Assembly (NCBI GenBank): GCA_949001935.1 | Contig: CARJLX010000001.1 | Span: 323,231-387,230 of the forward strand | From: an uncultured Eubacteriales bacterium | GTDB taxonomy: Bacteria; Bacillota; Clostridia; Christensenellales; UBA1242 | Reading direction: 5' to 3' | Length of the DNA stretch: 64,000 nt | In this document: positions 2,425 through 43,884 of the stretch, in pieces | Layout of the letters: each line of letters begins with the position of its first letter | Position numbering within the stretch: position 1 is the stretch's first letter | The notes under the pieces: generated by a model | What the model was told of the DNA's origin: nothing | The model's input: the letters and a program-made list of their open reading frames with translations, nothing else | Database searches by the model: none | Position numbers and translations under genes: made by a program

Positions 2425-3282
2425 ATGGCAGTTTTATTTGGTCCATCAGGCGGTGGAGAAGAAGCAGTTAATTCTGGTATCACAATCACAAAAATTCCAG
2501 AATTTATTAAAGAAAAAGGACTTGATGCTTTTGAATATTCTTTTGGGCATGGTTATATGATGTCTATTAAAACTGCATTACTTGCAGGCATGAAATTTAA
2601 ACAACATGATATTAAACTTAGCCTTCATGCACCTTTTTATATCAATTTTGCAAACCCAGATGATATTATGTACCAAAAATCTGCTGGATATCTTTATACT
2701 GGCATAAAATTTATGAGGGCTTTGGAAGCTGATAAACTTGTCTTTCATTCTGCTTCGTGCGGAAAACAAGATAGAAGTGAGGCGTATAAACTTACTTTCA
2801 ATCGTTTTCAAGAAACTTTTGATAAAATGGAAGAGCAAAATCTTTTAGATGGAATTTATCTTTGTCCAGAAACAATGGGGAAATCAATGCAAATTGGAAC
2901 ATACAAAGAAGTTATTGATCTTTGTACTGTAAATTCTCATCTAACTCCAACCTTTGATTTTGGACATATAAACTGCATTATGCAGGGCGGTTTGAAAACT
3001 CCTGATGATTATAAACGCATATTTGACTATGCTATTGAGAAACTTGGCTTTGAACGCACTTCAAATTGTCATATACATTTTTCTAAAATTCAATTTGGAG
3101 ACAAAGGAGAAATTCGTCACTTGAACTACACAGAAGACCAAGTTTATGGTCCTGAATTTGACCCGCTTGCAGAGGTTTTAATAGACTATAAACTTTCACC
3201 TCGTGTTATAACAGAATCAATGTCAAACATGGTTAACGACGCCATTTTACTTAAAAAAATATATAACGAAAAAATGAAATAA
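2425..3282 (+). CDS. endonuclease IV-like (AP endonuclease 2 / xylose-isomerase-like TIM barrel) protein
   Basis: Metal-ligand-like blocks lie in EndoIV order: HAPFYINFA, FHSAS, PETMGK, FDFGHIN, CHIHFSK. The start is moved to ATG 2425, behind SD AAAGGAG. The GTG at 2401 in the ORF track lacks an SD. Confidence 0.55.
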   Translation: MAVLFGPSGGGEEAVNSGITITKIPEFIKEKGLDAFEYSFGHGYMMSIKTALLAGMKFKQHDIKLSLHAPFYINFANPDDIMYQKSAGYLYTGIKFMRALEADKLVFHSASCGKQDRSEAYKLTFNRFQETFDKMEEQNLLDGIYLCPETMGKSMQIGTYKEVIDLCTVNSHLTPTFDFGHINCIMQGGLKTPDDYKRIFDYAIEKLGFERTSNCHIHFSKIQFGDKGEIRHLNYTEDQVYGPEFDPLAEVLIDYKLSPRVITESMSNMVNDAILLKKIYNEKMK

Positions 3283-3333: not shown

Positions 3334-4812
3334 ATGACTAATGAAGAAAATATAAATTTAAGAAAAAGATTGTTTGAAATAATTTCTAAGTTTATGATAG
3401 GGAAACAAAAAAATACTGATGTAAAAGAACTAGCAGAAATTTTTATTTACCATGCTCCATATAAAAACAGAGTAGTGTATAAAACAAGCAAAGACGACTT
3501 AAAAATAGATTTTAAAAAGTTTATTGATGATGATGGAAGTTATGAAAACAAAGTTATCACTTTTGATAAAAAAACTTATCGCAAGAATTTCTTTGATATT
3601 TTAATAACTGTTGGACATGAATATACACATTACATTCAGGATTTAGTAAATAAAGCAGTTAAAGAACATAAAATTGCTAAAATCAGAGAAAGAGTTCAAA
3701 AGATTATTTATTCTTTAGAGTTACCAAACTCGGGGATGGGAATTTATAACTTCTTGAAAACTTATAAATATCTTAATCTTGCCCTCAAGCCAAAAGAAGT
3801 TGAGCCTATTGCTTATGCATTATATCTGCAATTGCCTGACGAAGAAAATGCAAGAAAATGTTCTTTTCAATTTGTAAAAGAAATTTTACGTTCTTTAAAA
3901 GAGGATGAGTTATGTCCTCAAAACGTTAGAGAATATTTAACTCTGCAAGAAACATTACTGAAGTGCAAATGGAAAAAAGAATTAAAAAATTATGATAAAA
4001 ATTATTATGTTTTACGCAGAGTGTATGAAAAGGCAATACAAGATACTGAACATGTGCCTTATAAAGAGATTATTGCAAAAAGTAAAGATCCTAAATTACA
4101 AGAAGAATTAATTTGTGGAAAGATGTTAAATTATAGAAAACAAGGTATGGAGAAAAAGGAATATTTTAAACATCTTTTTAATTCATGCGGATTATTTTAC
4201 TCTCCAAACGAGTATGAAGGTATAAACAATGACCTCAAAAATCTAACTATTGAATATTTGACAAATGATAAAGATGTTGATATTTCTCATATCATTTTAT
4301 TGCTTGAATATATAAAGGTAAACAATAAATATTATAAAGATAACAAATTTGATTTTGTTGAACTGAGCGACTTTCCAGAAATCTGCACTAAACTTTTAAA
4401 AAATAGAAATTCAAAAACAGTTTATGATTTTGTAGAAGGAATTTTTAATATTGCCATTTCTAAAAAAGATAAAAATAATCCTATACAAAAAACTTTAAGA
4501 AAGAATTTAACAAAAAAACAATGTGGAGATATTTATTGGGATCTTGTTCAAAATGATGACTTATGTAACGCTATCTTTGCAGAGCGAGAACGACTTGTTG
4601 CTAAACAACAAGAAGATAAAAATTTGCAAGATGAAAAGGCTTCAAATCCTATTGAGAAGGCGGAAATGTTGATAAATCAAGTAGAGGCTTTAATAGAAAA
4701 TGTTAATTTAGATTTGTTAGCAAAGTTAGACGACTATATTTCTTGTGGAAAACAGGCTCTTGCAAAAACCCAATATAAAAATAAGTGCAAAGAAAATGAA
4801 ATAGAAGGTTAA
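3334..4812 (+). CDS. hypothetical protein with a single HExxH motif (possible zinc metallopeptidase-like domain)
   Basis: 492 aa ORF. GHEYTHYIQ lies at about residue 95. The rest is helical and Lys/Glu-rich with a coiled-coil-like C-terminus. I recognise no family. Confidence 0.4.
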   Translation: MTNEENINLRKRLFEIISKFMIGKQKNTDVKELAEIFIYHAPYKNRVVYKTSKDDLKIDFKKFIDDDGSYENKVITFDKKTYRKNFFDILITVGHEYTHYIQDLVNKAVKEHKIAKIRERVQKIIYSLELPNSGMGIYNFLKTYKYLNLALKPKEVEPIAYALYLQLPDEENARKCSFQFVKEILRSLKEDELCPQNVREYLTLQETLLKCKWKKELKNYDKNYYVLRRVYEKAIQDTEHVPYKEIIAKSKDPKLQEELICGKMLNYRKQGMEKKEYFKHLFNSCGLFYSPNEYEGINNDLKNLTIEYLTNDKDVDISHIILLLEYIKVNNKYYKDNKFDFVELSDFPEICTKLLKNRNSKTVYDFVEGIFNIAISKKDKNNPIQKTLRKNLTKKQCGDIYWDLVQNDDLCNAIFAERERLVAKQQEDKNLQDEKASNPIEKAEMLINQVEALIENVNLDLLAKLDDYISCGKQALAKTQYKNKCKENEIEG

Positions 4813-5642: not shown

Positions 5643-6554
5643 ATGCTTGAAAAAATACTGCCCGAAAATATTTATAATATTCTTGCAGAACGGATTTCAT
5701 TTAAAGCTTTAAATGAAATTCGTTTTCGTACCGAAAAACCTATTGTTGTTATTCTTGATGGACAACGATATTTTTTAGGTAGTAATGGAATAACCTCTAA
5801 TCTTAAAGAGGCTTTATCCTCAAGCAAAGTTATGATTGAGGATATCATTTTTAGAGCAAGTGAATGTTCTATCTATTCAGTCAATGAACAAATCAAAAAA
5901 GGCTTTATTGTCACACAAGGAGGAATTAGGCTTGGAATAGGTGGGGACTTCATTGAAGAGAATGGAGTTATTAAAACTATGACCAATTTTAACTCACTAA
6001 ATTTACGATTTCCTCATGAAGTTAAAAATTGCTCTCTGCCTATTTTTAATTATCTTTTTCAAAATGAAAATATTCAAAACACACTTATTCTTTCTCCACC
6101 TGGGGCGGGCAAAACGACTTTTCTAAGAGACTTTGTTTGTCAACTTTCTCAAAGAAATTATGCTTATAATGTACTTGTCCTTGACGAGAGGGGAGAACTT
6201 GATTTAGGCACACCTCAAAGCTTAGGAAATTTCAGTGACAAGATTTCATTTGCTCGTAAAAAAATTGGCTTTGAAAATGGAATCCGTGCATTGAGTCCAA
6301 ATATAATCGTAACTGACGAACTTGGAAGCAAAGATGATTTGGACGCTGTTATATATGCGGCAAATTGCGGAGTAAATATTGTAGCATCAGCTCATTGCGA
6401 TAATATGGATAACTTTATGAAAAAAGATGGATTTAAAGAGATTATCAACCTTAAAGTATTTAAACGGTTTGTTTTACTTTCTATGCGAGAAGGTCCTGGC
6501 ACTATTGAAGGAGTTTATAACGAAAACTTTTCAAGAATTATAAATCGAAATTAA
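5643..6554 (+). CDS. spoIIIAA: stage III sporulation protein AA (ATPase)
   Basis: 303 aa with Walker A SPPGAGKTT and a Walker B-like VLVLDE. It is the first gene of an eight-gene array matching spoIIIA order. SD GAGGTG lies upstream. Confidence 0.85.
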   Translation: MLEKILPENIYNILAERISFKALNEIRFRTEKPIVVILDGQRYFLGSNGITSNLKEALSSSKVMIEDIIFRASECSIYSVNEQIKKGFIVTQGGIRLGIGGDFIEENGVIKTMTNFNSLNLRFPHEVKNCSLPIFNYLFQNENIQNTLILSPPGAGKTTFLRDFVCQLSQRNYAYNVLVLDERGELDLGTPQSLGNFSDKISFARKKIGFENGIRALSPNIIVTDELGSKDDLDAVIYAANCGVNIVASAHCDNMDNFMKKDGFKEIINLKVFKRFVLLSMREGPGTIEGVYNENFSRIINRN

Positions 6555-6563
6555 GGAGGGAAC

Positions 6564-7058
6564 ATGAAATGGATTTTAATTGCAATAGTTTTTATTGCAT
6601 GTATAATTATTGGTTATGTTTTTTCACTTAAGTATAAAAGGCGTGCAAATTTTTTTAAAGCCTTAATTCTACTTTCTCAAAAACTTGATATTGGAATTAA
6701 TTTTTCTCGTGAACGGCTACAAAACTTATTTGCTGGTTTAGATGAAGGAATAAAAAAAGACCTAAACAATTTGACCGAAAATTATATTTCTTATCTTCAA
6801 GAAAACAGTGACTTAACCAGTGAAAAATTGTTTAAAGGCATCAACCTTTTGAAAGACAATGAAAAAGAGATTGTTTTGATGTTTTTCAAAATGTTAGGAC
6901 GCAGTGATGTAGAAAGTCAATCTAAAGAAATAAAGAATTTTGAAATACGCTTCAACGAATTTTCTAGCAAAGCCAATGAAGAGAATAAGAAGTATGGCGG
7001 ATTATCTTTAAAAATGGGACTTATTATTGGACTTATGTCTACTGTTATATTATGGTAA
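6564..7058 (+). CDS. spoIIIAB: stage III sporulation protein AB
   Basis: 164 aa with TM helices at the N- and C-termini. Size and position (second gene) match SpoIIIAB. Confidence 0.7.
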   Translation: MKWILIAIVFIACIIIGYVFSLKYKRRANFFKALILLSQKLDIGINFSRERLQNLFAGLDEGIKKDLNNLTENYISYLQENSDLTSEKLFKGINLLKDNEKEIVLMFFKMLGRSDVESQSKEIKNFEIRFNEFSSKANEENKKYGGLSLKMGLIIGLMSTVILW

Positions 7059-7071
7059 AAAGGAGGGGAGA

Positions 7072-7266
7072 ATGGGTGTTGAAATTATATTTAAGATTGC
7101 CGCAATCGGCATTTTAACCGCCATTGTAGGGCAGATTTTAAAACAGACTGGAAAGGAAGAAATCTCCTCTCTTGCTACACTTGCTGGTCTTATACTTGTA
7201 CTTTTGATGGTTTTAAATTTAGTTGGTGACTTATTTACAACAATTAAAACAATGTTTAATTTTTAA
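7072..7266 (+). CDS. spoIIIAC: stage III sporulation protein AC
   Basis: 64 aa, two TM helices. MGVEIIFKIAAIGILTAIVGQILKQTGKEE resembles B. subtilis SpoIIIAC. The start is moved from 7027 to ATG 7072, behind GGAGGGGAG. Confidence 0.8.
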   Translation: MGVEIIFKIAAIGILTAIVGQILKQTGKEEISSLATLAGLILVLLMVLNLVGDLFTTIKTMFNF

Positions 7267-7308
7267 CATCTATAGTATTATGCATTGCATAATATCTACA
7301 AAATATAG
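7266..7308 (+). repeat. intergenic motif family 2, long form (contains a 19-nt perfect palindrome)
   Basis: ACATCTATAGTATTATGCATTGCATAATATCTACAAAATATAG. The palindrome TATTATGCA-T-TGCATAATA is at 7276-7294. Near-identical copies lie at 39404-39440 and 47772-47810. Confidence 0.7.
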
Positions 7309-7329
7309 ATTTATTATAGAAGGGGTTAA

Positions 7330-7722
7330 ATGGATTTAATTTATAAGATAGTTGCTATTGGTATAATAACTTCAATTGCAACGCTTATCATAAAACCTAT
7401 AAGAAGCGACTTTGCATTGATGATAGCCTTAACAGGGGGTATCATTATTTTGCTTATGCTCTTAAACTATTTAACAAGTGTTTTTGATGCTTTCAAACTT
7501 ATAATTAATTCAACAGGAATTTCCTCATCGCTTTATTCTATTGTATTAAAAATTGTTGGTATAGGTTATTTGATAGAATTTTCTGCTGGAATATGTAATG
7601 ATAGTGGCAATTCCTCGCTTGCCGATAAAATATTATTAGGTGGAAAAATTGTAATAATGGTTATGGCTTTACCAATTATAACAAATATTCTTCAAATTAT
7701 TTCGGAGCTATTGCCTGCATGA
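7330..7722 (+). CDS. spoIIIAD: stage III sporulation protein AD
   Basis: 130 aa, four TM helices, fourth gene of the array. Size and hydrophobic pattern fit SpoIIIAD. Confidence 0.8.
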   Translation: MDLIYKIVAIGIITSIATLIIKPIRSDFALMIALTGGIIILLMLLNYLTSVFDAFKLIINSTGISSSLYSIVLKIVGIGYLIEFSAGICNDSGNSSLADKILLGGKIVIMVMALPIITNILQIISELLPA

Positions 7723-9032
7723 TAGGAAAACCATATTGTTTATTTTTAAAGCGAGGAAGTGTAAACAATTTTAATAAATATACTAACTTTGAAAGGCTTC
7801 AAAAATTAACCATAAAGAAAAAAGTTTTAAAAATTTTAACTATATGTCTATTCATATTTTTATTTCTTTCTCCAATTATATCAGCTTCTTTTGAAACTTA
7901 TATTATTGCTGATGAGATTACTGCAGAAGAGCGAGAAGAGGCCATGAAAGAGCTTCAAGAAAACATTTTAAATCAATTAGAAGATTTAAACTTTGAAGGA
8001 CTTGAAGAAATTTTAAAAAACTTGGATATTCAAGGTAATGAAATATTTGGTTCAGCCTCTTTTAAAGACAAAATTTTAAGTTTAATATCTGGTCAATTCA
8101 CGGAAGGAAAAGCTAGCTTTTGGGAGGCTTTGATTGCTTTGTTTTTTGATGACCTTCTAGCATTACTTCCTATTATGGCAACAGTAGTTGCTATCGCTAT
8201 TTCTGGAGGAATGTTGCAAGGGCTTAGACCGACATCAAACTCTAAGTCCATACAAGATGTTATTCATTTTGTCACATATGGAATTATAGTTGTAGTGTTG
8301 CTAGGAGTGACTGTAAAAATGGTGACAATGACTGGTGGAGTTATTACCTCTATAAAAAATCAAATGGATGCAATATTTCCAATACTCTTAACTCTTTTAA
8401 CTGCGTTAGGCGGAACGGTTAGTGTTTCTGTTTATCAACCTGCTATGGCACTATTGACAGGGACTATTTTAAATTTCTTTTCTTATATACTTTTGCCATT
8501 ATTTATTTTTTCTATAGTTTTCAGCGTTGTTTCAAATCTTTCTAACACCGTAAAATTGGACAAGTTCACTTCATTTTTCCACAGCACTTTCAAATGGTTA
8601 TCAGGGCTTATTTTTACAATTTTCTCGGCTTTTATTTCTATTCAAGGTATAACCGCTGGATCTGTTGACGGAATTTCTATCAAGACCGCTAAGTATGCTA
8701 TTCGTTCTTATGTTCCTATTTTAGGATCTTATATTAGTGATGGGTTATCTATTATAATAGCAAGTTCTTCTTTAATCAAAAATGCAGTTGGTGCGGCTGG
8801 ATTACTTTTACTTTTAGCGACTATTATTTCTCCTTTAATTAAACTTATTATTTTTATGCTTGCTCTCAAGCTTATGTCGGCTATTATCGAACCACTTGGA
8901 AACTCTAAGGTTGCAAACTTTATCTCTGGAATTTCCAAATCTATGGTTCTCCTTATCGCTATTATTATTGGTGTTGCTTTCATTTATTTCATTATGCTTG
9001 GTCTTATCATGTGCTCCGCTAATATCTTTTAA
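7719..9032 (+). CDS. spoIIIAE: stage III sporulation protein AE
   Basis: 437 aa. It has a signal/TM N-terminus, a soluble acidic segment, then a polytopic membrane domain. Fifth gene; overlaps spoIIIAD by 4 nt. The exact start is uncertain. Confidence 0.8.
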   Translation: MIGKPYCLFLKRGSVNNFNKYTNFERLQKLTIKKKVLKILTICLFIFLFLSPIISASFETYIIADEITAEEREEAMKELQENILNQLEDLNFEGLEEILKNLDIQGNEIFGSASFKDKILSLISGQFTEGKASFWEALIALFFDDLLALLPIMATVVAIAISGGMLQGLRPTSNSKSIQDVIHFVTYGIIVVVLLGVTVKMVTMTGGVITSIKNQMDAIFPILLTLLTALGGTVSVSVYQPAMALLTGTILNFFSYILLPLFIFSIVFSVVSNLSNTVKLDKFTSFFHSTFKWLSGLIFTIFSAFISIQGITAGSVDGISIKTAKYAIRSYVPILGSYISDGLSIIIASSSLIKNAVGAAGLLLLLATIISPLIKLIIFMLALKLMSAIIEPLGNSKVANFISGISKSMVLLIAIIIGVAFIYFIMLGLIMCSANIF

Positions 9033-27896: not shown

Positions 27897-28020
27897 ATTT
27901 TTTATCTATGAAATTATTTGACTTAAAAATTCTTTATGGTGTATAATTAGTTAGGTGAAAATTAATTTATTGCATATGTTGCTAATTTAAACAATTTTCA
28001 TACATTAAAAGGGGAAAGTT

Positions 28021-29610
28021 ATGAGCAGTTTAAGCATTCTTTGCTCTGCTGCTGTGACCGCCGGAATTGTTAGTGGGGTTATCGCACTCATCGTTGGAGT
28101 GGGATTTGGTATACTTTTATACAAACTTCTTGCCACAAAAAAAATCGGTAAATCTAAGACAAATGCTGTCAAAATTATCGAAGAGGCGTATGCAGAGGCA
28201 AAGACTATTAAAAAAGAAGCTATTTTAGAAGCTAAAGAGGAATCTCAAAAAATTAAAGATGAGGCTACCGAAGAAGCTAAAAATAGACGAAACGAAATTC
28301 AAAAGTCTGAGGAGCGTCTTGAACAACGCGAAGAATACATCACTAAAAAAGAGATGGCTCTTGACACTAAACAAGAACAAATTGACAACGAAAAAAACAA
28401 GATTGATGCTGAGCGTCAAAAAATTGCAGTCGCAATTGAAGAGCAGGCAAAAATCAAAGAAAACATGCTTACTGAACTTGAAAAAATTTCAGGCTTAAGC
28501 AAGAATGATGCTAAGAATATTTTAATTGAAAACATCACAGAAGATGCAAAAAAAGATGCTGGTATTTTAGTTAAAAAGATTGAGGATGAAGCAAGAGAAA
28601 ATGCAGAAAAGTTTGCACAAGAAATTGTTGCAGGTGCTATTCAAAAATGTGCAACAGACCTTTCTAGTGAAATGACTGTAACAACAGTGCCTCTTCCAAA
28701 TGACGAAATGAAGGGTAGAATAATTGGTCGCGAGGGACGTAATATTCGTTCTATCGAAAGCGTGACAGGCGTTGAACTTATTATTGACGATACACCTGAA
28801 GCAATCACTATTTCAAGTTTCGACCCAATTAGAAGAGAGATTGCACGTCTTTCTCTTGAAAAACTTATTGTTGATGGCAGAATTCATCCAACAAGAGTTG
28901 AAGAAGTTGTTGATAAAGCCACAATGGAAGTTGAAAAGACAATCAAACAAGCGGGTGAAAACGCATGCGAAGAGGTTGGAATTTTCAATCTTCACCCAGA
29001 ACTTGTTAAAGTTTTAGGGCGATTGAAGTATAGAACAAGTTATGGGCAAAATGTGCTTAGGCACTCTATTGAAACTGCAATCTTAGCAGGATTAATTGCC
29101 AGTGAACTTGGGGCAAACGCTACAATAGCAAAACGCGGTGGACTTCTTCATGATATTGGTAAAGCCTTAGACCATGAAATTGAAGGAACACATGTTTCAA
29201 TCGGTGTTGACCTTGCCAAAAAATACAAAGAGAATGAAGAAGTTATTCATTGTATCGAAGCTCACCATATGAATGTTCCTTTCCATAGCATTGAAGCTAT
29301 TATTGTTCAAGTAGCAGATGCGATTTCATCTTCAAGACCTGGTGCAAGACGCGAAAGCTTTGAAAACTATATTAAGCGTTTACAACAACTTGAAGAGATT
29401 TCAAACAGCTTCAAAGGCGTTGAAAAATCTTATGCTATTCAAGCAGGTCGTGAAGTTCGCATCATTGTAAAACCAGAAGAAATCAATGATAATGACGCTA
29501 TGTTCCTTGCAAAAGATATTGCAAAGCGTATTGAAAATGAAATGCAATATCCAGGGCAAATCAAAGTCAACGTTATTCGCGAATACCGTGCAAGTGACAT
29601 TGCAAAATAG
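28021..29610 (+). CDS. rny: ribonuclease Y
   Basis: 529 aa with an N-terminal TM helix, a coiled coil, a KH domain (GRIIGREGRNIRSIE) and an HD domain (LLHDIGKA). Confidence 0.95.
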   Translation: MSSLSILCSAAVTAGIVSGVIALIVGVGFGILLYKLLATKKIGKSKTNAVKIIEEAYAEAKTIKKEAILEAKEESQKIKDEATEEAKNRRNEIQKSEERLEQREEYITKKEMALDTKQEQIDNEKNKIDAERQKIAVAIEEQAKIKENMLTELEKISGLSKNDAKNILIENITEDAKKDAGILVKKIEDEARENAEKFAQEIVAGAIQKCATDLSSEMTVTTVPLPNDEMKGRIIGREGRNIRSIESVTGVELIIDDTPEAITISSFDPIRREIARLSLEKLIVDGRIHPTRVEEVVDKATMEVEKTIKQAGENACEEVGIFNLHPELVKVLGRLKYRTSYGQNVLRHSIETAILAGLIASELGANATIAKRGGLLHDIGKALDHEIEGTHVSIGVDLAKKYKENEEVIHCIEAHHMNVPFHSIEAIIVQVADAISSSRPGARRESFENYIKRLQQLEEISNSFKGVEKSYAIQAGREVRIIVKPEEINDNDAMFLAKDIAKRIENEMQYPGQIKVNVIREYRASDIAK

Positions 29611-29618
29611 GAGCAGAT

Positions 29619-30200
29619 ATGAATAATATAATTGAGACAGTTCAAAAATATAATCAAGGGGACGAACTTCTTGAAATTCTCACAGAAAATGGGGGGGGGA
29701 CAGGTGTTCCTGCTAAAAGAAAAGATATTCATAAACAAGGACTTTGGCATAGAGCAGTCATCATTGCAATTATAAATGATGAAAATAAAATCTTGATACA
29801 AAAAAGAGCCTCGACAAAAGAAAAATTTCCTGGACTTTGGGATTTATCAGTAGCAGGTCATGTCCCATTTGGACAAGATAGCACAAGTTGTGTAGTATTA
29901 GAAATTATGGAAGAAGTTGGCTATATGATTCCTAAAAAAATTGGGGTAAAAGACTTTAGATTCATGACTTCTTTTAGAAGTCATATTAATGTTAGTGATT
30001 CTTTTATAGAAAATCAATTTTATGATTTCTTTATTTGTAATTTTAATATACCTATACAGGATATTCATCTGCAAAAAGAAGAAGTTGATGAGGTTCGTTA
30101 TGCAACAATTTTTGAGATAAAAGAAATGGCAGACAAAGGGCTATTTCATCCAAGAACTGAATGGATTCAAGTTCTTTATAATTATATTGCTAAATTTTAA
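29619..30200 (+). CDS. NUDIX-fold hydrolase (degenerate Nudix box); contains an in-frame G9 tract
   Basis: 193 aa. WHRAVIIAI and GHVPFGQDSTSCVVLEIMEEVGY resemble an IDI/Nudix fold with non-consensus box residues. The G9 run at 29691-29699 encodes GGG. Confidence 0.6.
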   Translation: MNNIIETVQKYNQGDELLEILTENGGGTGVPAKRKDIHKQGLWHRAVIIAIINDENKILIQKRASTKEKFPGLWDLSVAGHVPFGQDSTSCVVLEIMEEVGYMIPKKIGVKDFRFMTSFRSHINVSDSFIENQFYDFFICNFNIPIQDIHLQKEEVDEVRYATIFEIKEMADKGLFHPRTEWIQVLYNYIAKF

Positions 30201-30211
30201 TTGGAGTTAAA

Positions 30212-30763
30212 ATGAAAAACTACTTTATAATTCATGGAAGCTTTGGTTCTTCTCAAGAGAACTGGTTCCCTTGGCTTGAAGCTGTAATTAAGCAGCGGGG
30301 GGGGGATTTGTGTATTAATTTAGATTTCCCAATAGGTGAAGGTAAACAAAACTACACAAATTGGGAAATGGTGCTAAACTCTGTTAAAAGATTTATAAAT
30401 GAAGATAGCGTATTCTTTTGTCATTCTATTGCTTGTATATTTTTAGTTAAATATTGTATAAAAAATCATATTAAAATAGGTAAAGCAATATTCGTGTCGG
30501 GATTCAATCATTATCTTGGATTAGATGAAAATTTTGATGAAGTCAATTGCACAATGTACACTACTCGTGGAAGTGAATTTATTAATCTTTGCAAAGAAAG
30601 AATTTGCTATTATGCAAAAAATGATCCATATGTAAAATTTAATAAACTCCAAGAATTTGCAGAATTGATTGAAGCAAAATCAATAGTAATCGAAACGGCA
30701 GGACATTTTAACCAATCAGCAGGTTATACACAATTTAAAGAGTTATTAGAGTATATAAAATAA
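30212..30763 (+). CDS. YdeN/RBBP9-like alpha/beta serine hydrolase; contains an in-frame G9 tract
   Basis: 183 aa. NYFIIHGSFGSSQENWFPWL and CHSIAC (nucleophile-elbow-like) fit the YdeN family. The G9 run at 30297-30305 encodes RGG. Confidence 0.55.
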   Translation: MKNYFIIHGSFGSSQENWFPWLEAVIKQRGGDLCINLDFPIGEGKQNYTNWEMVLNSVKRFINEDSVFFCHSIACIFLVKYCIKNHIKIGKAIFVSGFNHYLGLDENFDEVNCTMYTTRGSEFINLCKERICYYAKNDPYVKFNKLQEFAELIEAKSIVIETAGHFNQSAGYTQFKELLEYIK

Positions 30764-30946: not shown

Positions 30947-31531
30947 ATGAATTGGTTTTATGAGTTATTTATAGAAAATTTTCAAGGTTGTATTTGGCTT
31001 GCTTGTATATTACTTGCAATGATACCTGCTTTAGAGGCAAAGATAGCAATTCCTTTTGCTATGAATCCTGCATTTTGGGGGAATAACGCACTTCCTGCTT
31101 GGCAGGCTTGCATATTTGCATTTATAGGATCAATATTACCAAGCCTTGCAATAATATATTTTACTAGATTTTGCAAATCTAAAACAAGCGGATTTTTAGT
31201 TAACTCAAAAAAATTTTCTGTTAAAGTTAAACAGTTAAATAACAAGTCTTCTAACTTTAAAAAATACTTAACGCTTTGTGGTTTTGTTGCATTACCTTTA
31301 CCTTTGACTGGCGTTTGGACGGGAAGTTTAGTTGCTGGAATAAGTAATTTAAAGATTTGGAAATGTATTATTTCTATATTTATTGGAGCTTTAATTTCTT
31401 GTATATTAATGACTTTAATATGTGTTTTCTTTTCAAACTCAATAGGAACAATTTTAATAATTTCTCTTTGCTTAATAATAGTCTTCCTTGCAATAGATTT
31501 ATTTATAACTTTAATAAAGAAAAAATCATAA
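30947..31531 (+). CDS. small membrane protein, possibly COG2426 small multidrug export family
   Basis: 194 aa with 4-5 TM helices. IPALEAKIAIPFA resembles that family. No SD, and the assignment is weak. Confidence 0.4.
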   Translation: MNWFYELFIENFQGCIWLACILLAMIPALEAKIAIPFAMNPAFWGNNALPAWQACIFAFIGSILPSLAIIYFTRFCKSKTSGFLVNSKKFSVKVKQLNNKSSNFKKYLTLCGFVALPLPLTGVWTGSLVAGISNLKIWKCIISIFIGALISCILMTLICVFFSNSIGTILIISLCLIIVFLAIDLFITLIKKKS

Positions 31532-31550: not shown

Positions 31551-31793
31551 TTATTCAAGATTATCTTCATAATCACTAAAAATGCTAGAAACTATTGGAT
31601 TAGAATTGCCATATACAAATTCGTGCACATCATGACAAACTAATCCAATATAACAATTATTGTCACTTTTATTATTATAGGAATTAGATGATTTTATTAC
31701 GATTGGAGCAAGGACTAATCCTGCGAACAATTTTAAAATTCCTTTAAAACGAACTTCTAACATTTTAACCTCATTTATTTTAATTAATGCCAA
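31551..31793 (-). CDS. hypothetical small secreted/membrane protein
   Basis: 80 aa with a signal-like hydrophobic N-terminus. Its start overlaps the end of the PadR-like gene by 10 nt, which suggests translational coupling. Confidence 0.4.
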   Translation of the reverse strand: MALIKINEVKMLEVRFKGILKLFAGLVLAPIVIKSSNSYNNKSDNNCYIGLVCHDVHEFVYGNSNPIVSSIFSDYEDNLE

Positions 31794-33649
31794 TGTTTAA
31801 CAATCATTGTTTTCTTAACAAAATTGTAAATAGGTAGATAAATCAAAATATAAACTGCTGGCAAGAATAGGGTAGTAGAAAAAGTTAACCAATTTTCTGT
31901 ATTTAAACCAAAAGCGAAATTTAATCCTATTATAGCTCCACAACCTAGCAAAGTTATCAACCAAACTAACCAGCCAGAGAGCATAGGTTTAGGTTCCCAA
32001 CTTGTATGTTTTTTAAATGCGTAATATCTACAAACGCATTCAGCACCTGCGAGAATAGGAAATGCTAAGAAAAGAAAAGTAGTGGCGTTCATTAAATTAT
32101 TGGTCAAATAAAGAGCAGTGAAGATAACAGCGGTAGCTACAAGAGATAATCCTAAGCAAATCAAAGAAGAAATAAAACCAAGCTTGTTTGTATTATGTTT
32201 TTCTTTTATATTAGACTTCTCATAAACTTTAAATGCAATGCCTTGTGAAGTGTAATAATCTTGTAAATCCTCATAATCATAAATATAATTTTCATCAACT
32301 TGACCATTGGCATTTCCGCCTTTACTCTTAGAGTATAGTTTAGAAATAATTTCTTTATGAGAAAGGTCAATAGAATTATCACGCTTAGGTGCAGGAAGAG
32401 GAGTTTCCTTTTCTCCCATAATTTTAAGTCTAGGAGGCTCTATTTTTCTTGCTTTTGCTACCTGAGATTTATCTAAATATTGATTGATAAAAACTCCATC
32501 ATCATTTTGCATTTCTTCTTTACTTTCTTTTGCACTTGGGAAGTTTGCTGAATAGTAATTTCTTATAGCCGCATTGTTTTGACTTTGACTTATAGTAGGT
32601 TGTGGATTAGGAGTAACATGTTCACGAACTTTATTAAATTCGTCCTCGCTTAATCTTTCATTTACTCTACCTTTATTAGCCAAAATAGAGGACTTCAATT
32701 CTTCTATATTTTGTTTAGTTTTTTCATCATCACGCTCAAGAGGATCGCTTACCGCAAAAGACATTTGATCTTCAGCAAAACTACGCTTTCTCTTATACTT
32801 ATTTATGTCTCTAGAGATATCATAAATTTGTTGATTTGATAATTGTGTTTGTGTAAATACTTCTTCTTTTATTTCACTTTGTTGTTCACTTGCAGTTTCA
32901 TGAATCAACTCATCTTTTTCAACTTGCTCATTTTCTTGTACTTGCTTTTCAATAGAAGGTTGATTTTCTTCAGATGGCTTCAATAAACTTGCAATAGAAA
33001 ATTGCTTTTCTTGATGCTGAGGTTTTTCGGCTTCTTGCACTTGTTGCTGATTACTTTCTTCTATATACTCTTGTTTGTCCTCATAACCTTGTTTATTTTG
33101 GAACTCAGTTTGAGGGATAGGCTCAACAAAAGATTCTTCTGTAGATAAAAAGACACCATCGTCTTCAACAATTTCCTCTTTCTCTTGATTTGTAGAAGTA
33201 TCTAATGAAGAAAAATCAAAGAAATCACTTTGCTCATAATTTTCTTGATTATCTTCTTTATCTTGTATTTCAGTCTTAACGCCAATTGCTTCAACTTGAG
33301 CAATAGGGGATTTTTCTTCAATCACATTGCCATCTTCATTAAAATCCTTGAATACATCAATGCCATTTCGATCGAAATAATCTTTTAAAGAAGCAAAAGT
33401 GTCACGACCTTTTTCAGTTATACTATAATATCTACGATTTGGGCCAAGTTCGCTGCTTTGTACATAAGAAGATACTTGACCTTGTTTTTCCATTCTAGTC
33501 AAGTTTGAGTAAACACTTGGTTTTTTGAGTAGGATACGACCATTAGAGCGATCTTTAACTTCGCTAATAATGTCTAGACCGTAATAGTCACGCTCTAAAA
33601 GACAATTTAAAATTAAATATGATAATTGACCTTTTGCATAAATTTCCAT
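31784..33649 (-). CDS. PadR-family winged-helix regulator fused to a long acidic linker and a C-terminal four-TM membrane domain
   Basis: The first ~95 aa (GQLSYLILNCLLERDYYGLDII...YYSITEKGRDTF) are PadR-like. About 380 aa of E/Q/K-rich low complexity follow, then four hydrophobic helices. Confidence 0.7.
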   Translation of the reverse strand: MEIYAKGQLSYLILNCLLERDYYGLDIISEVKDRSNGRILLKKPSVYSNLTRMEKQGQVSSYVQSSELGPNRRYYSITEKGRDTFASLKDYFDRNGIDVFKDFNEDGNVIEEKSPIAQVEAIGVKTEIQDKEDNQENYEQSDFFDFSSLDTSTNQEKEEIVEDDGVFLSTEESFVEPIPQTEFQNKQGYEDKQEYIEESNQQQVQEAEKPQHQEKQFSIASLLKPSEENQPSIEKQVQENEQVEKDELIHETASEQQSEIKEEVFTQTQLSNQQIYDISRDINKYKRKRSFAEDQMSFAVSDPLERDDEKTKQNIEELKSSILANKGRVNERLSEDEFNKVREHVTPNPQPTISQSQNNAAIRNYYSANFPSAKESKEEMQNDDGVFINQYLDKSQVAKARKIEPPRLKIMGEKETPLPAPKRDNSIDLSHKEIISKLYSKSKGGNANGQVDENYIYDYEDLQDYYTSQGIAFKVYEKSNIKEKHNTNKLGFISSLICLGLSLVATAVIFTALYLTNNLMNATTFLFLAFPILAGAECVCRYYAFKKHTSWEPKPMLSGWLVWLITLLGCGAIIGLNFAFGLNTENWLTFSTTLFLPAVYILIYLPIYNFVKKTMIVKHWH

Positions 33650-33813: not shown

Positions 33814-34632
33814 TTAATTATAAATATTATTTAGTAATAAAGTTATTTTGTTAACTTCTTTTAAAATCAAATCTTCTCCTAAATGAACGACATGTTTAAA
33901 GTGCCTTATCTGCCTAACTAATTTGACTAAATAAATATTTTTAACATCCACTTTCTTGTTATAATGATTAAGCATTGAATTAAAAATTATATCGTCATAC
34001 CCCATCATTGGGGCAAATTCAACTTCCTTAACATAATATTCCATATTGCCAAAATCTATAATGCCGGATAATTTATTATCTTCGCCAATCAATATGTTTG
34101 CTTCCTGGAGGTCGCCGTGAGTTAAACAAAACTCGCTTTGCCTCATAAATTCTTCATAGTTTTTATATACTTTTAAAAATTTATTAAAATCTTCTTTGCA
34201 CACATATTCCTTCAATAAATTTAAACTTTTTTCAAGTTTAGCAAGATTTATTTTTATTTCATCGTCTTTATTCAAATCACAATTTATTGATTGCATTTCT
34301 TGAAAAAAATTAACAAGACTTTTCCCAATATCTTCTTTTTCAACATTAGACAATTCATTTATCTTATTCTTAAGAGTTTTTCCATCAACAAAATTTTGTA
34401 GCATGGCTCCAAAAGGGTATTTTGAATTTGGTTGTATAAGTTCAGGATTGTCAGTTATCTTTACAGAAGAGATTTTGCCATCAATAAGTCTTGTTTTATT
34501 AAATAAACTTTGATAAAGCGAAAATGAATCTTCTCTTTTACCAACCAATAAAACTCTGTTATCTTCCGTTAAATATGCATCACTGCAAGCACCGCTATCT
34601 ATAAACTTTAAATTTTCAAATTCTTTTTCCAT
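33814..34632 (-). CDS. aminoglycoside phosphotransferase (APH)/choline-kinase family protein
   Basis: 272 aa. The catalytic-loop motif HGDLQEANILI and IIDFGN (DFG-like) match the APH fold. Substrate is unknown. Confidence 0.7.
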   Translation of the reverse strand: MEKEFENLKFIDSGACSDAYLTEDNRVLLVGKREDSFSLYQSLFNKTRLIDGKISSVKITDNPELIQPNSKYPFGAMLQNFVDGKTLKNKINELSNVEKEDIGKSLVNFFQEMQSINCDLNKDDEIKINLAKLEKSLNLLKEYVCKEDFNKFLKVYKNYEEFMRQSEFCLTHGDLQEANILIGEDNKLSGIIDFGNMEYYVKEVEFAPMMGYDDIIFNSMLNHYNKKVDVKNIYLVKLVRQIRHFKHVVHLGEDLILKEVNKITLLLNNIYN

Positions 34633-39562: not shown

Positions 39563-40603
39563 ATGACAGGCCTTTCCTTTTATGAAAAGCGAGACATTCA
39601 AAATAGATTAAAAACAGGTAAATATTCTGAAAATTTACCTGAGTTTTGTTATGATTTTTTAGTAGGCATAGAAAACAATACATCTACTTTAACAAGATAT
39701 AATTATTCCATGGATATAGCTGTATTTATGGACTATCTTTCACGCTATGTGATAAAGAAACCTGTTGAAAATATTTCACTTGAAGATATGGATAAAATAA
39801 AATCTCGTCATATTGAGCAGTTTTTATCATATCTCTCATATTACGACAAAGACGGAAAGGAGAATAAGAATGGCGAAAAAGGGAAAGCCAGAAAACTTGC
39901 CTCAATACGCAGTTTATTTAAATATTTATTCAATCATGATATGATTTCTTCTAATGTAGCAAGCAAGGTTGAAACCCCAAAGCTACACAGTAAAGAAATT
40001 ACTCGACTTGAACAAAACGAAGTTGAAAAACTTATGAATGTAGTTGAAAACCCTTGTACATTTACAGAAAGACAAAAGAACTATGACAAAAACACTTTTG
40101 AGCGCGATAATGCAATCATTACCCTGTTTTTAGGAACTGGAATACGTATTTCAGAGCTTGTTGGGCTTGATATTGATAGTTTTGACTTTTCACAAAATGC
40201 ATTTATCGTCACACGCAAAGGCGGAAATCAAACTATGCTATATTTCTCTAACACTGTTGCGCAAGCTCTCAAAACTTGGCTTGAAAAAAGATCCACTTTG
40301 GAGCTTCCTAATGATGAAAAAGCAATGTTTATCTCTTTACAACGCAAACGAATTTCTGTTCGTGCAGTTGAAAACTTAGTTAAAAAATTTGCTAAAGAAG
40401 CCTCACCTCTTAAAAATATCTCACCACACAAACTTCGCAGTACATTTGGCACAAACCTATATCGCGAAACCAAAGACATCTATATTGTTGCTGATGTTTT
40501 AGGTCATAAAGATGTCAACACAACAAAACGCCACTATGCCGCTATCAGCGAAGACATGCGTAAAAGCGTGGCCGATAAAGTCAAGATTAGAAACGATGAC
40601 TAA
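39563..40603 (+). CDS. tyrosine site-specific recombinase, XerC/XerD-like
   Basis: 346 aa with an N-terminal SAM-like domain. Catalytic residues lie in order: R (GIRISELVGL), HKLRSTF, GHKDVNTTKRHY. No phage or IS genes flank it. Confidence 0.8.
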   Translation: MTGLSFYEKRDIQNRLKTGKYSENLPEFCYDFLVGIENNTSTLTRYNYSMDIAVFMDYLSRYVIKKPVENISLEDMDKIKSRHIEQFLSYLSYYDKDGKENKNGEKGKARKLASIRSLFKYLFNHDMISSNVASKVETPKLHSKEITRLEQNEVEKLMNVVENPCTFTERQKNYDKNTFERDNAIITLFLGTGIRISELVGLDIDSFDFSQNAFIVTRKGGNQTMLYFSNTVAQALKTWLEKRSTLELPNDEKAMFISLQRKRISVRAVENLVKKFAKEASPLKNISPHKLRSTFGTNLYRETKDIYIVADVLGHKDVNTTKRHYAAISEDMRKSVADKVKIRNDD

Positions 40604-40932: not shown

Positions 40933-42174
40933 TTATTTCCCTTCTCCTTCCATTAACCAATCGCTATAAATTCCATACCCTTTTGTTGGATCTGATAAGA
41001 ACACATGCGTAACAGCTCCAATTAGTTTATCATTTTGAATTATTGGCGAACCACTCATGCCTTGAACTATTCCGCCTGTCAATTCCAAAAGACGTTTATC
41101 TGTCACTCTAAACACTAGACTTTTATCATCAGATTTAGACTGATAATTGGCTTTAATAATTTCAATATCATATTCTTCTCGAATTCCACTAACGCTTGAA
41201 ACAATCTTAGCTTTACCAGGTTTCACACCCAATCTTCCTCCTAAGGTCGCTGTTAAATTAGCATCAACCATATTTTCTAAATCATCGAGGTGACCAAATA
41301 TGCCATATTTATTATTTTTCTTTATTTGACCTTTCTCATTACTTTGCAAGAACACACATCTAAGCTCCCCAGGGTTATTTCTTTCCCCTTTATTTATACC
41401 TATTAGAGAGCAATCAAAAACTTTACCATCTGTTAAAGGAATAATATTTCCAACTTTACCATCTGTTATTGGATGCCCAAGTGCTACAAAATTATGGTTA
41501 TCTTGTTTAACATAAGTTAAAGTACCAACTCCTGAGATGTCATCTTTTACCCAAAGCCCCAATTTATATTTGCCATCTTTATTTTTAATGAGGTCTACAA
41601 TAGTTTTTTCAAGTTGATTTTTCCTTAAGTATTCTATTTCAACCCTGCCATTACTAGAATTTAAAATTTCTTCCACCTCATCAAGCGAATTAATCAATTT
41701 CCCATCTATCGTTTTTAAAACATCTCCACTTTTAAAAATTCTATTTTTGTTTATTCCTTCCCCATCAGTTGCAACAATCGTATCACTAATCACAATAGCC
41801 CCATCAGTTGCAAGAGAAATCCCGATAGGCACTCCACCTATAAATACATCTTCTTCTGGCAAAATATTTACCTTAACCTTTCGAATAGGAATCAAACCAA
41901 AAAGTTTAAATACAACAGTTCCTTCTTTCTGCCTTTCGCTACTAACGCTTGCATCTCCCTTTTCTAAGGAAGTTTTTACAAATGAACCAAATAAAGAATT
42001 GTTATTTACATTATCAACATCATTAAAACTTGCTGAAAAATTATCTGGTAATGCAAAAATATCGCCAAACCCAACATTCTGCAAAAGAATTAAAGTTGAT
42101 ATGGCTAAAACAAAAATTAGCGTATAAATTCGTTTAAATCTTTTACCTTTTCTCATAGGTTTTAGTCTACGCAA
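40933..42174 (-). CDS. spoIVB: SpoIVB peptidase (S55 family sporulation signalling protease)
   Basis: It has a signal/TM N-terminus, a PDZ-like region and a serine-protease block GMSGSPIIQNDKLIGAVTHVF. The start is uncertain: TTG 42174 or ATG 42156, neither with a good SD. Confidence 0.88.
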   Translation of the reverse strand: MRRLKPMRKGKRFKRIYTLIFVLAISTLILLQNVGFGDIFALPDNFSASFNDVDNVNNNSLFGSFVKTSLEKGDASVSSERQKEGTVVFKLFGLIPIRKVKVNILPEEDVFIGGVPIGISLATDGAIVISDTIVATDGEGINKNRIFKSGDVLKTIDGKLINSLDEVEEILNSSNGRVEIEYLRKNQLEKTIVDLIKNKDGKYKLGLWVKDDISGVGTLTYVKQDNHNFVALGHPITDGKVGNIIPLTDGKVFDCSLIGINKGERNNPGELRCVFLQSNEKGQIKKNNKYGIFGHLDDLENMVDANLTATLGGRLGVKPGKAKIVSSVSGIREEYDIEIIKANYQSKSDDKSLVFRVTDKRLLELTGGIVQGMSGSPIIQNDKLIGAVTHVFLSDPTKGYGIYSDWLMEGEGK

Positions 42175-42222: not shown

Positions 42223-43884
42223 CTACTTTGCTTTTGCCCGCATTTCTTGTGAGTGTTTAAGTGCAACTTCAGTTGCATCACCACCAACCATTTTTGCAAG
42301 ACCTTCAATAATCCCTTGTTCATCAAGCCTCTCTACATTCGTGACAGTTGATTCGCCTTCCACTTTTTTGGAAACATAAAACATCTCATCACAATATGAA
42401 GCAACTTGAGGTAGATGGGTTATACAAATAACTTGATTATTTTTAGAAAGTTTAGAAATTTTTTCGCCAACAACAACGCCAGTTTCGCCACCAATGCCTG
42501 CATCTATCTCATCAAAGATAAGAGTTTCTGCACTGCCAAATTCAGCAAATATATTTTTAATAGCAAGCATAAACCTACTCATTTCACCACCAGAAGCTGT
42601 TTTACTTAATGCTTTAACTTCTTGTCCTTTATTTGCAGAGAAAGCGAACCTAGCAATATCATAACCATTAGCTGAGAACCCTTCAGCTTTTTCAAATTCT
42701 ACTATAAAGGTTGTATTTTTCATGCCTAGTTCACTCAACTCTTTAACGACCTTTCCTTCAATAACCTTTGCTACTTCCGCACGCTTATTCGTCAAACTAT
42801 TACATGCTTCAAATAAAGAACTCTCTTGTTGAACTTTTAAATTTTCTAACATTTCCAACTCGAACTCTGCATCATTAAGTTTGTTTAATCTGTCTTTTGC
42901 GTTTTCACAAAATAATAAAACTTCGCTTATGCTTCCACCATACTTCTTGAGCATAGATTTTATCAAATCATTGCGTTTATCTAATTTCTCCAACTCAAAT
43001 TCATTGAAATTAAGCTCACTAGCAAAATCATTTAATGTTTCATTTATATCTTGAAGTTCATACTTACAACTATTTAATCTTTCCTTACAAGAGTCAATCA
43101 CTTCAATTCCAGTCACATTATTTATTGACATCAACGCTTCCTGAACTTGAACAATTGCAGACATTGAAGAGTTCTCAAGTGCTTCATTACAAGATTTAAC
43201 GCCATCACAAATTTTTTCAGCATTAGCTAACATCAATAATCTAGATTTTACTTCTTCATCTTCACCATCATGAAGACTAGCTTCTTCTATCTCCTTAATT
43301 TGATACTCCAAAAGAGCCTTAGTACGCTCTCTTTCAAAAACATCTCCCCCCATTGCTTTAATTTGAGCTAATGTGTTTTGATAACGCTCATATCTTTCTT
43401 TTACCTCATTTTTGAGAGCCCATAAACTTTGTCCACCAAACTTATCTAACATAGCTAAGTGATTTTTATTATTCAAAAGTTCAATACTCTCATGCTGAGA
43501 ATAACTGTCTACTAAAATACTACCAATCTTTTTTAAAGTTGAGGCTATCATAGGTGTGCCATTCACGCGTATAACACTCTTTCCGTCACGTGTAAGTGAA
43601 CGTGAAAGTAAAATCTCATTTTCTTCAACCTCAACTCCAAGTTCATTTAAAAGTGCAATTGCTTGAGAAGATAATTCACTAAACAAGGCATCAACTTTCA
43701 TTAAATCCTCACCAGTACGCAAAAGTTCTTTATCTGCCTTACCACCAAGCACAAAGTTTAACGAGTCAAATATAATACTCTTTCCTGCACCAGTCTCACC
43801 TAACAGAACATTAAAACCTTTCCCAAAATCAATAGAAAGATTTTTTATTAATGCAACATTTTTTATATTTAAAGTTTGAAGCAT
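42223..43884 (-). CDS. recN: DNA repair protein RecN
   Basis: 553 aa. It has an N-terminal Walker A LLGETGAGKS, a long coiled coil and a C-terminal SGGEMSRFMLA signature. Confidence 0.95.
   Translation of the reverse strand: MLQTLNIKNVALIKNLSIDFGKGFNVLLGETGAGKSIIFDSLNFVLGGKADKELLRTGEDLMKVDALFSELSSQAIALLNELGVEVEENEILLSRSLTRDGKSVIRVNGTPMIASTLKKIGSILVDSYSQHESIELLNNKNHLAMLDKFGGQSLWALKNEVKERYERYQNTLAQIKAMGGDVFERERTKALLEYQIKEIEEASLHDGEDEEVKSRLLMLANAEKICDGVKSCNEALENSSMSAIVQVQEALMSINNVTGIEVIDSCKERLNSCKYELQDINETLNDFASELNFNEFELEKLDKRNDLIKSMLKKYGGSISEVLLFCENAKDRLNKLNDAEFELEMLENLKVQQESSLFEACNSLTNKRAEVAKVIEGKVVKELSELGMKNTTFIVEFEKAEGFSANGYDIARFAFSANKGQEVKALSKTASGGEMSRFMLAIKNIFAEFGSAETLIFDEIDAGIGGETGVVVGEKISKLSKNNQVICITHLPQVASYCDEMFYVSKKVEGESTVTNVERLDEQGIIEGLAKMVGGDATEVALKHSQEMRAKAK

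Follow-up and report, generated by a model that had tools for sequence, protein, structure and literature searches.

We analysed a stretch of 64,000 nucleotides (nt), hereafter the window, from the genome of an uncultured Eubacteriales bacterium (Clostridia; Christensenellales; UBA1242; contig CARJLX010000001.1, positions 323,231 to 387,230 of the forward strand). Within it, two adjacent genes encoding small predicted hydrolases, one with a Nudix fold and one of the YdeN type, each carry an uninterrupted run of nine G residues (G9) close to the 5' end. The genes and features at this locus, in window coordinates, are as follows.

28021-29610, plus strand: RNase Y gene (rny), directly upstream; taken from the open reading frame (ORF) list, with Pfam RNase_Y_N/KH/HD matches in the relatives' orthologue
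29619-30200, plus strand: Nudix-fold gene, 193 amino acids (aa), IDI/YfcD-like; Pfam PF00293 NUDIX, E 1.7e-12
29691-29699, plus strand: G9 homopolymer, codons 25-27 of the Nudix-fold gene, in frame (ON)
30212-30763, plus strand: YdeN/RBBP9-type serine hydrolase gene, 183 aa; Pfam PF06821 Ser_hydrolase, E 4.8e-17
30297-30305, plus strand: G9 homopolymer, codons 29-32 of the serine hydrolase gene, in frame (ON)
30947-31531, plus strand: sme gene (Sm_multidrug_ex/VTT membrane protein), downstream flank

The Nudix run corresponds to nt 73-81 of its ORF and reads GGG GGG GGG within the peptide ENGGGTG, and the hydrolase run corresponds to nt 86-94 and reads C-GG GGG GGG G-AT, supplying R29, G30, G31 and the first base of D32 (QRGGD). 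The two runs are spaced 606 bp apart. A preliminary description of the window had reported these coordinates, the spacing, the in-frame state and the early-gene position, and had listed a C6 run at 43346-43351 as the only further G/C run of at least six; the sequence and a run count agree with it on every one of these points. Apart from the two G9 tracts, the window holds no G/C run of at least seven, and runs of five number 12, in DNA of 31.7% GC. The G8 pattern has four matches, whereas 100 dinucleotide-preserving shuffles averaged 0.09 and never reached four, and with independent, identically distributed bases 0.007 G/C runs of at least nine are expected per 64 kb. Chance, which the preliminary description had already judged an improbable source, does not explain the two runs. 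Codon usage in the window's long ORFs is equally unfavourable to them: GGG is the rarest Gly codon (13.9%), CGG is the rarest Arg codon (1.7%), and the only three GGG-GGG codon pairs all lie inside the two tracts. Altering the tract lengths in silico truncated the Nudix product to 51 aa (G8) or 32 aa (G10) and that of the hydrolase to 36 aa (G8) or 35 aa (G10). Both tracts are therefore early-ORF homopolymers of at least about 7 nt, longer than composition predicts, in which a 1-nt change shifts the frame and truncates the product with the remaining ORF intact, as is the case at contingency loci.

The identity of the two enzymes is supported by profile searches. The Nudix-fold ORF scored 47.9 bits against PF00293 (cutoff 21.1), its NCBIfam matches to IDI and YfcD stayed under their cutoffs (66.8 versus 127 for IDI), and its PDB profile matches were likewise IDI and YfcD. 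The Nudix box at residues 80-102 (GHVPFGQDSTSCVVLEIMEEVGY) keeps the G, E, EE and G positions of the canonical GX5EX7REUXEEXGU motif and is partly degenerate, with Q in place of the first E and L in place of the R. The protein may be either a hydrolase or an isomerase. The serine hydrolase scored 62.9 bits against PF06821 (cutoff 22), and its nearest solved structure is Bacillus subtilis YdeN (PDB 1UXO, profile E 2e-20); with YdeN and human RBBP9 it shares the PF06821 family, including the Ser/Asp/His columns and the predicted fold. The columns of S72, D138 and H165 are invariant in an alignment of 45 hydrolase homologues, and we take Ser72/Asp138/His165 to be the catalytic triad from what is known of the family. 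The AlphaFold2 (AF2) model of the hydrolase, with a predicted local distance difference test (pLDDT) score of 93, consists of alternating strands and helices and predicts an alpha/beta-hydrolase fold. It places the tract-encoded residues 29-32 in a surface turn between helix 19-28 and strand 33-37, and gain or loss of a Gly in that modelled turn should be tolerated. Neither the hydrolase nor the Nudix protein has a signal peptide or a known surface role. A part in anti-phage defence was considered and rejected, PADLOC returning only a weak generic Nudix match (PDC-S07, E 2.6e-7) and none for the hydrolase. Only 8 nt separate rny from the Nudix ATG and 11 nt the Nudix stop from the hydrolase ATG, and the best candidate promoter, at 27918-27947, precedes rny; because of these short gaps and the position of that site, rny, the Nudix gene and the hydrolase gene are likely co-transcribed as one predicted operon.

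Conservation of the hydrolase tract was assessed across species. Scanning one genome per GTDB species gave 80 hydrolase loci (L numbers), of which the 20 closest, at 64-86% aa identity, were compared; the comparison data were short-read metagenome assemblies throughout. A pure G7-G10 run is present at the same site of the gene (about nt 80-86) in 13 of these 20 species representatives: G9 in L002, L007, L008, L009, L012, L016 and L017; G10 in L003, L014 and L020; G8 in L005 and L013; and G7 in L019. Orthologous codons, whose comparison the preliminary description had proposed, are thus not mixed Gly codons at this site in those 13 species, and three of the pure runs are out of frame. A further locus, L015, has a G9 elsewhere in the hydrolase gene, near codon 41 (PCGGGNQ), and more distant homologues have GGA or GGT codons with the run absent. 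When metagenome contigs were scanned with the hydrolase alignment, the best relatives found were only 58% identical.

The codon phase of the run differs among these species (CGG GGG GGG; TC-G GGG GGG GGG; TGC GGG GGG GGG), and the encoded peptides (RGG, SGGG, CGGG, RGGN) lie in the least conserved segment of the protein. Because both phase and peptide vary, it is the DNA run that has been kept and not the peptide. Constraint at the protein level was ruled out as the cause of the run by the varied phases, the varied peptides and the use of the rarest codons. This conservation of DNA beyond what the protein needs, while the flanking codons diverge, argues for selection acting on the run itself. 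The genomic setting of the hydrolase gene changes from species to species: the gene follows mreB, a U32 peptidase gene or a gene of the short-chain dehydrogenase/reductase (SDR) type, or lies beside iPGM and RNB genes. Since these settings are unrelated, the tract travels with the gene.

Length variation at the hydrolase tract was evident both between and within species. In L014 (G10), L019 (G7) and L020 (G10), the frameshift falls exactly at the tract, and the 150 downstream codons are still open. Within one species, L013 (G8, intact) and L161-165 (G9, broken; five independent assemblies) are 99.9% identical over 2.2-3.5 kb, and the sole gap between them is the hydrolase tract. The downstream frame is open in all of the natural OFF alleles L161-174. 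In the species of protein cluster P0157, an out-of-frame G9 is present in 8/8 loci shown. In the P0132 species, the most often sampled among the clusters examined, loci 98-100% identical in DNA carry an intact G10 or a broken G9 or G11, and all three lengths occur among samples of a single cohort; L179 and L190 of this species are 99.96% identical with one gap. Near-identical strains also differ in a poly-T lying about 10-40 nt past the hydrolase stop, before an RNB (RNase R/II-like) gene, in L179-L192. Its states are absent, T9, T12, T13 and T14, and most of the remaining gaps among these loci are due to it.

Truncation was then counted from the member lists of 90%-identity protein clusters, in which at most 15 members are listed per cluster. 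Among the members listed, seven tract-bearing hydrolase clusters comprised 189 N-terminally intact contigs and 167 truncated or frameshifted ones (167/356), compared with 84 intact and 2 truncated or frameshifted contigs (2/86) in two tract-free clusters. The difference gives a Fisher P of 7e-18, with contig counts that are not independent samples. Variants that differ in Gly number while staying in frame also occur (RGGEQ and RGEQ; AGGVQ and AGGGVQ). Assemblies tend to break at the run: the contig of L018 starts inside it, that of L016 begins 16 nt ahead of it, and in L207 a scaffold gap coincides with the tract. A read artefact of two-colour chemistry, in which poly-G is spurious, was ruled out by the unique conserved flanks and by recurrence in the assemblies of many independent studies, and random homopolymer error would not be expected to produce the same out-of-frame length in many independent samples. 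Tract length is therefore polymorphic among near-identical strains, for the hydrolase and, as described below, for orthologous Nudix genes.

The Nudix tract of the window presents a different picture. At this site, the middle residue of the ENG-V-G motif is V, I or L in 108 of 112 motif-matching homologues, and the relatives' DNA reads GGA GTT GGG, GGT GTA GGC or, in L178, GGC GTG GGG. Variable poly-G or poly-C tracts are present at three other early Nudix positions in other species, given here by protein cluster.

P0024: ATG followed by the G run, codons 2-4; G9 intact in L201-206; G10 broken in L193, L194, L197 and L198; G7 broken in L195 and L200; MGGGGT products correspond to a G12 variant, as read from the product
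P0009: coding-strand poly-C at codons 15-17; products with PP, PPP and PPPP, from which C8, C11 and C14 are deduced; C9 in six loci, all broken, one of them having a scaffold gap there
P0013/P0360: G9 located 9 nt before the ATG; read-through calls contain GGGG and GGGGG

By comparison, six tract-free Nudix clusters are uniformly full length among the members listed. For the Nudix gene, the comparison of orthologous codons therefore gave a divided answer: it went against the preliminary description at the window's own site, where relatives encode G-V-G with mixed codons and the tract is unique, and in its favour at the three other early positions. Since orthologues carry tracts at these positions, the Nudix family is a recurrent target and the adjacent pair in the window is no coincidence, and the independent tracts elsewhere make the window's own Nudix tract credible. 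Repeated independent gain of homopolymers in one family best fits an advantage of switchability and would be hard to explain otherwise.

Two further kinds of Nudix allele were encountered. In L196 and L199, which are P0024-type, AAAAATAGAGGGGTACT replaces AAAAATGGGGGGGGGTACT about 210 nt upstream of the called 112-aa gene, so that start codon and tract are both destroyed; this looks like a locked-OFF or decaying allele. The truncated homologue P0054 was examined as a candidate switch and rejected, its frameshift being a 1-nt deletion in ...GGGCTATG-CAT..., where there is no homopolymer. The Nudix orthologues in L175 (2380-2620, on an 855-kb contig) and L176 have the single-base deletion in the GLWHRA motif encoded there and represent an ordinary pseudogene or an error.

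The interval between rny and sme varies among relatives, with the following gene orders (nudix and ser denote the Nudix and serine hydrolase genes).

Window: rny, nudix, ser, sme
L001: rny, ser, sme
L007: rny, nudix, small membrane ORF, ser, sme
L003: rny, nudix, small membrane ORF, MBL-fold gene, ser, sme
L014: rny, ser (OFF), small SnoaL-like gene bearing an out-of-frame G8, sme
L178: rny, nudix, sme

The interval thus appears, from these gene orders, to be a small slot for variable accessory genes within a conserved core region. Between the window (29611-30211) and L001 (3973-4000), the Nudix gene is an exact presence/absence difference between rny and the hydrolase gene. The G8 of L014 (4619-4626) lies 57 nt into the small SnoaL-like ORF (MKDYQKWIKNFMDSWKKLDGG...) in the hydrolase-sme interval; because it stands beside the hydrolase G10 of the same locus, adjacent tract-bearing genes recur.

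Outside these genes, G/C runs of at least eight are rare in about 0.94 Mb of related loci, and some of those that do occur lie in promoter-like sequence. On the minus strand of L022, at 3157-3165 and 3895-3903, a repeated element of the form CTCTTGACA-G9-AATGTGA-TATAATCA precedes each of two paralogous membrane-protein genes (180-185 aa). It corresponds to a consensus TTGACA/TATAAT promoter with an extended -10, the poly-G lying within the 16-nt spacer. In L081, two copies of this type of element differ in length, G9 (663-671) and G8 (1401-1408). The element in L022 and L081 has the look of phase variation at a promoter spacer, here in a more distant relative belonging to the same group of gut Clostridia. 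In L004, where the hydrolase gene itself has lost the tract, a C9 (4786-4794) lies between TTGACA and TGCTATGAT (-10-like, TATGAT), about 200 nt before the next gene. The distribution of runs suggests that the wider group has a modest number of contingency loci, as opposed to a random scatter.

Comparison with known systems places these tracts in a familiar class. The poly-G contingency genes, or phasome, of Campylobacter jejuni and C. coli and their equivalents in Helicobacter and Neisseria (PMC6321876, PMC2823697, PMC3786947) likewise have early-ORF G/C runs of about 8-13 nt in which 1-nt changes toggle the frame, with lengths that differ between close strains and tracts conserved across the species of a genus. 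Occasional promoter-spacer tracts are also shared, here the TTGACA-G9...-TATAAT arrangement of L022, and Campylobacter has a comparably low-GC genome. Unlike in these systems, the host here is a Gram-positive, spore-former-like, uncultured gut Clostridia lineage, and the tracts lie in genes for a YdeN-type hydrolase and an IDI/YfcD-like Nudix protein instead of in surface-glycan, flagellar, receptor or restriction-modification genes. In Bifidobacterium breve, a G tract in the coding region of a sortase-dependent pilus gene is switched ON and OFF by replication slippage (PMC9187656); that organism is also a Gram-positive gut commensal, and its tract recurs across species of the genus, but it belongs to the high-GC actinobacteria and switches a pilin precursor (PMC9187656). 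In B. breve, maximum-depth sequencing together with enrichment in vivo verified the switch (PMC9187656), whereas the tracts described here are known from assembly comparison.

The preliminary description knew of no documented case in spore-forming Firmicutes, which proved too narrow: in the account given in PMC2831843, citing Kearns et al. 2004, a 1-nt change in a poly(A) tract at nt 20-27 of B. subtilis swrA switches the gene. As that account presents it, swrA is likewise an early-ORF homopolymer in a spore-forming Firmicute, and it differs in being a single poly(A) locus in an AT-rich context where such runs are common, as opposed to the poly-G/C runs found here. Homopolymers are in general biased to 5' ends, and poly-G/C runs are generally under-represented (PMC2831843). 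A precedent for the type of target is Mycobacterium tuberculosis glpK, in which homopolymer indels reversibly inactivate a cytoplasmic metabolic enzyme, with drug tolerance as the phenotype (bioRxiv 10.1101/717272). Like the two genes in the window, glpK encodes a cytoplasmic enzyme and not a surface structure, which shows that enzyme genes can be contingency loci; it differs in phylum and GC content and in having a defined phenotype. The literature searched yielded no account of phase variation by homopolymers in Christensenellales, nor in any YdeN-type or Nudix gene, and described no homopolymer switch for the YdeN/RBBP9 family. The comparative evidence is strong that the tracts would represent a known kind of switch in a new lineage, with an unusual class of target gene.

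We therefore propose that both G9 runs are hypermutable slipped-strand ON/OFF switches, that is, contingency loci, for two small cytoplasmic hydrolases, and we assign this reading a probability of about 0.72. During replication, the nascent or the template strand would misalign within the run so that one G is added or removed; the frame would shift after about 25-32 codons, a stop would follow within 10-25 further codons, and a second slip would restore the frame. With two independent tracts, the gene pair could adopt four expression states in the population, of which the present assembly has both genes ON. We infer slippage as the mutational mechanism, its reversibility and the heterogeneity of this genome's population from the comparison of assemblies, and the ON and OFF states are presumably heritable and reversible. 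The preliminary description had likewise read the runs as phase-variable, and its reading gains support from the conserved hydrolase tract and from within-species lengths (G8/G9 and G9/G10/G11) that toggle the frame.

Several observations weigh against this proposal. In L001, the closest relative, whose flanking DNA is about 81-91% identical, the hydrolase tract is interrupted (CGGGAGGGGG) and the Nudix gene is missing from the locus. The G9 at this Nudix position is unique to the present genome and replaces a conserved hydrophobic residue, so that the window's Nudix tract may represent a recent neutral mutation or an error in assembly. The window's species is represented by a single assembly (P0001 and P0121, one member on one contig each), and length heterogeneity within it is extrapolated from relatives. 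Homopolymers and truncated gene calls in short-read assemblies carry some error, and the targets are cytoplasmic enzymes, not the surface or restriction-modification genes typical of contingency loci.

The most serious competitor to a selected switch, though still an unlikely one, holds that the runs are real and do slip but are mere mutational hot spots, the OFF alleles representing recurrent loss of dispensable accessory genes and the tract persisting by ancestry or drift. It draws on the accessory character of both genes, since gene sets between rny and sme vary and the hydrolase has several unrelated contexts, on the loss or interruption of the tract in L001, L004, L006, L010 and L011, on the absence of the Nudix start codon and tract in L196 and L199, and on the share of OFF alleles, about half of contigs. 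However, a neutral run of the rarest codons at 32% GC should break quickly, and it is kept in 13 of 20 species while its flanks diverge; new tracts arose independently in the same two families (L015 and the three further Nudix positions); the OFF alleles have no secondary stops in 150 downstream codons; and the catalytic triad columns are invariant. 

Sequencing or assembly error in one or both G9 runs is less probable still. It would apply more readily to the Nudix site, where the true sequence could be GGGGTGGGG (G-V-G, as in relatives) or a run of another length: that tract occurs in this assembly only and takes the place of a conserved V/I/L, one T-to-G substitution in GGG-GTG-GGG would suffice to create it (L178 has GGC GTG GGG), homopolymers are error-prone, and the species has been seen once. 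Yet G9 keeps both ORFs in frame, an outcome that random length error would give with a chance of 1/3 per tract; the hydrolase tract matches a conserved feature assembled independently in many relatives by different studies; a consensus substitution error is uncommon in a 451-kb contig; and orthologous Nudix genes of other species have real, reproducible tracts. Marginally less probable again is an effect exerted at the RNA level with graded settings, through transcriptional slippage or ribosomal frameshifting that would leave OFF alleles leaky, with some full-length protein made from them, or through tuning of translation by an internal Shine-Dalgarno-like sequence or a Gly-Gly-Gly pause. Runs of at least nine identical bases can cause RNA polymerase to slip, as with Buchnera poly(A) (PMC2831843), a G-rich run could serve as a ribosome-binding site, a GTG start is called directly after the run in the OFF alleles of one species (P0242, 151 aa), and about half of natural alleles are out of frame with ORFs still intact. 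The many positions, the occurrence of both G and C orientations and the promoter-like spacers nevertheless fit a switch of DNA length better, and a product restarted past the tract would be without the first beta-strand and the HGSFG motif. For retention across species together with repeated independent origin, none of these alternatives explains the data as well as slipped-strand switching.

The remainder of the window is informative about the host lineage. Homologues of spoIIIAA and spoIIIAE (within 5643-9032, plus strand) and of spoIVB (40933-42174) are present together with housekeeping genes, and the presence of these three sporulation homologues supports a spore-former-like lineage. The close relatives are all uncultured gut metagenome-assembled genomes labelled Clostridia, "Christensenella sp." or Candidatus Onthoplasma (NCBI: Christensenellales). 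Neither mutS nor mutL is among the window genes scanned, a result that covers 64 kb and is uninformative on the whole genome. Near the tract genes, a minus-strand gene (31784-33649) encodes a 621-aa protein in which a PadR DNA-binding domain at the N terminus is joined through a long, acidic, Q/E-rich linker to a hydrophobic, probably multi-pass membrane region at the C terminus, an unusual membrane-tethered regulator of the PadR type. An APH-family phosphotransferase gene lies at 33814-34632 (minus strand), and a tyrosine recombinase/integrase gene at 39563-40603 (plus strand) is located beside a seryl-tRNA synthetase gene.

A broader and rather speculative extension, which we consider doubtful at present, is that the clade may have a Campylobacter-style poly-G/C phasome in ORFs and promoter spacers, with the Nudix and YdeN-type hydrolases as conserved, independently switchable members. 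The two enzymes would perhaps share a small-molecule or envelope-precursor substrate, and their four states would provide bet-hedging, for example by making some cells tolerant of phage or of a compound from the host, the diet or other microbes. If so, cytoplasmic "housecleaning" enzymes would constitute a new functional class of contingency gene, found purely from metagenomes.

Most studies of homopolymer phase variation have dealt with a few pathogens and with surface structures. Here the evidence comes from public metagenome assemblies alone, and it indicates a poly-G switch that is conserved across species, in which about half of the natural alleles of one small cytoplasmic hydrolase appear to be OFF, and a Nudix family that has gained such switches several times independently. 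If the proposed switching is correct, contingency loci extend to an abundant, uncultured group of spore-former-like gut Firmicutes. The "pseudogenes" and truncated calls at these sites would then be switch states and not errors, which is a warning for annotators, and both enzymes would be flagged as under fluctuating selection, a strong hint toward finding their substrates.

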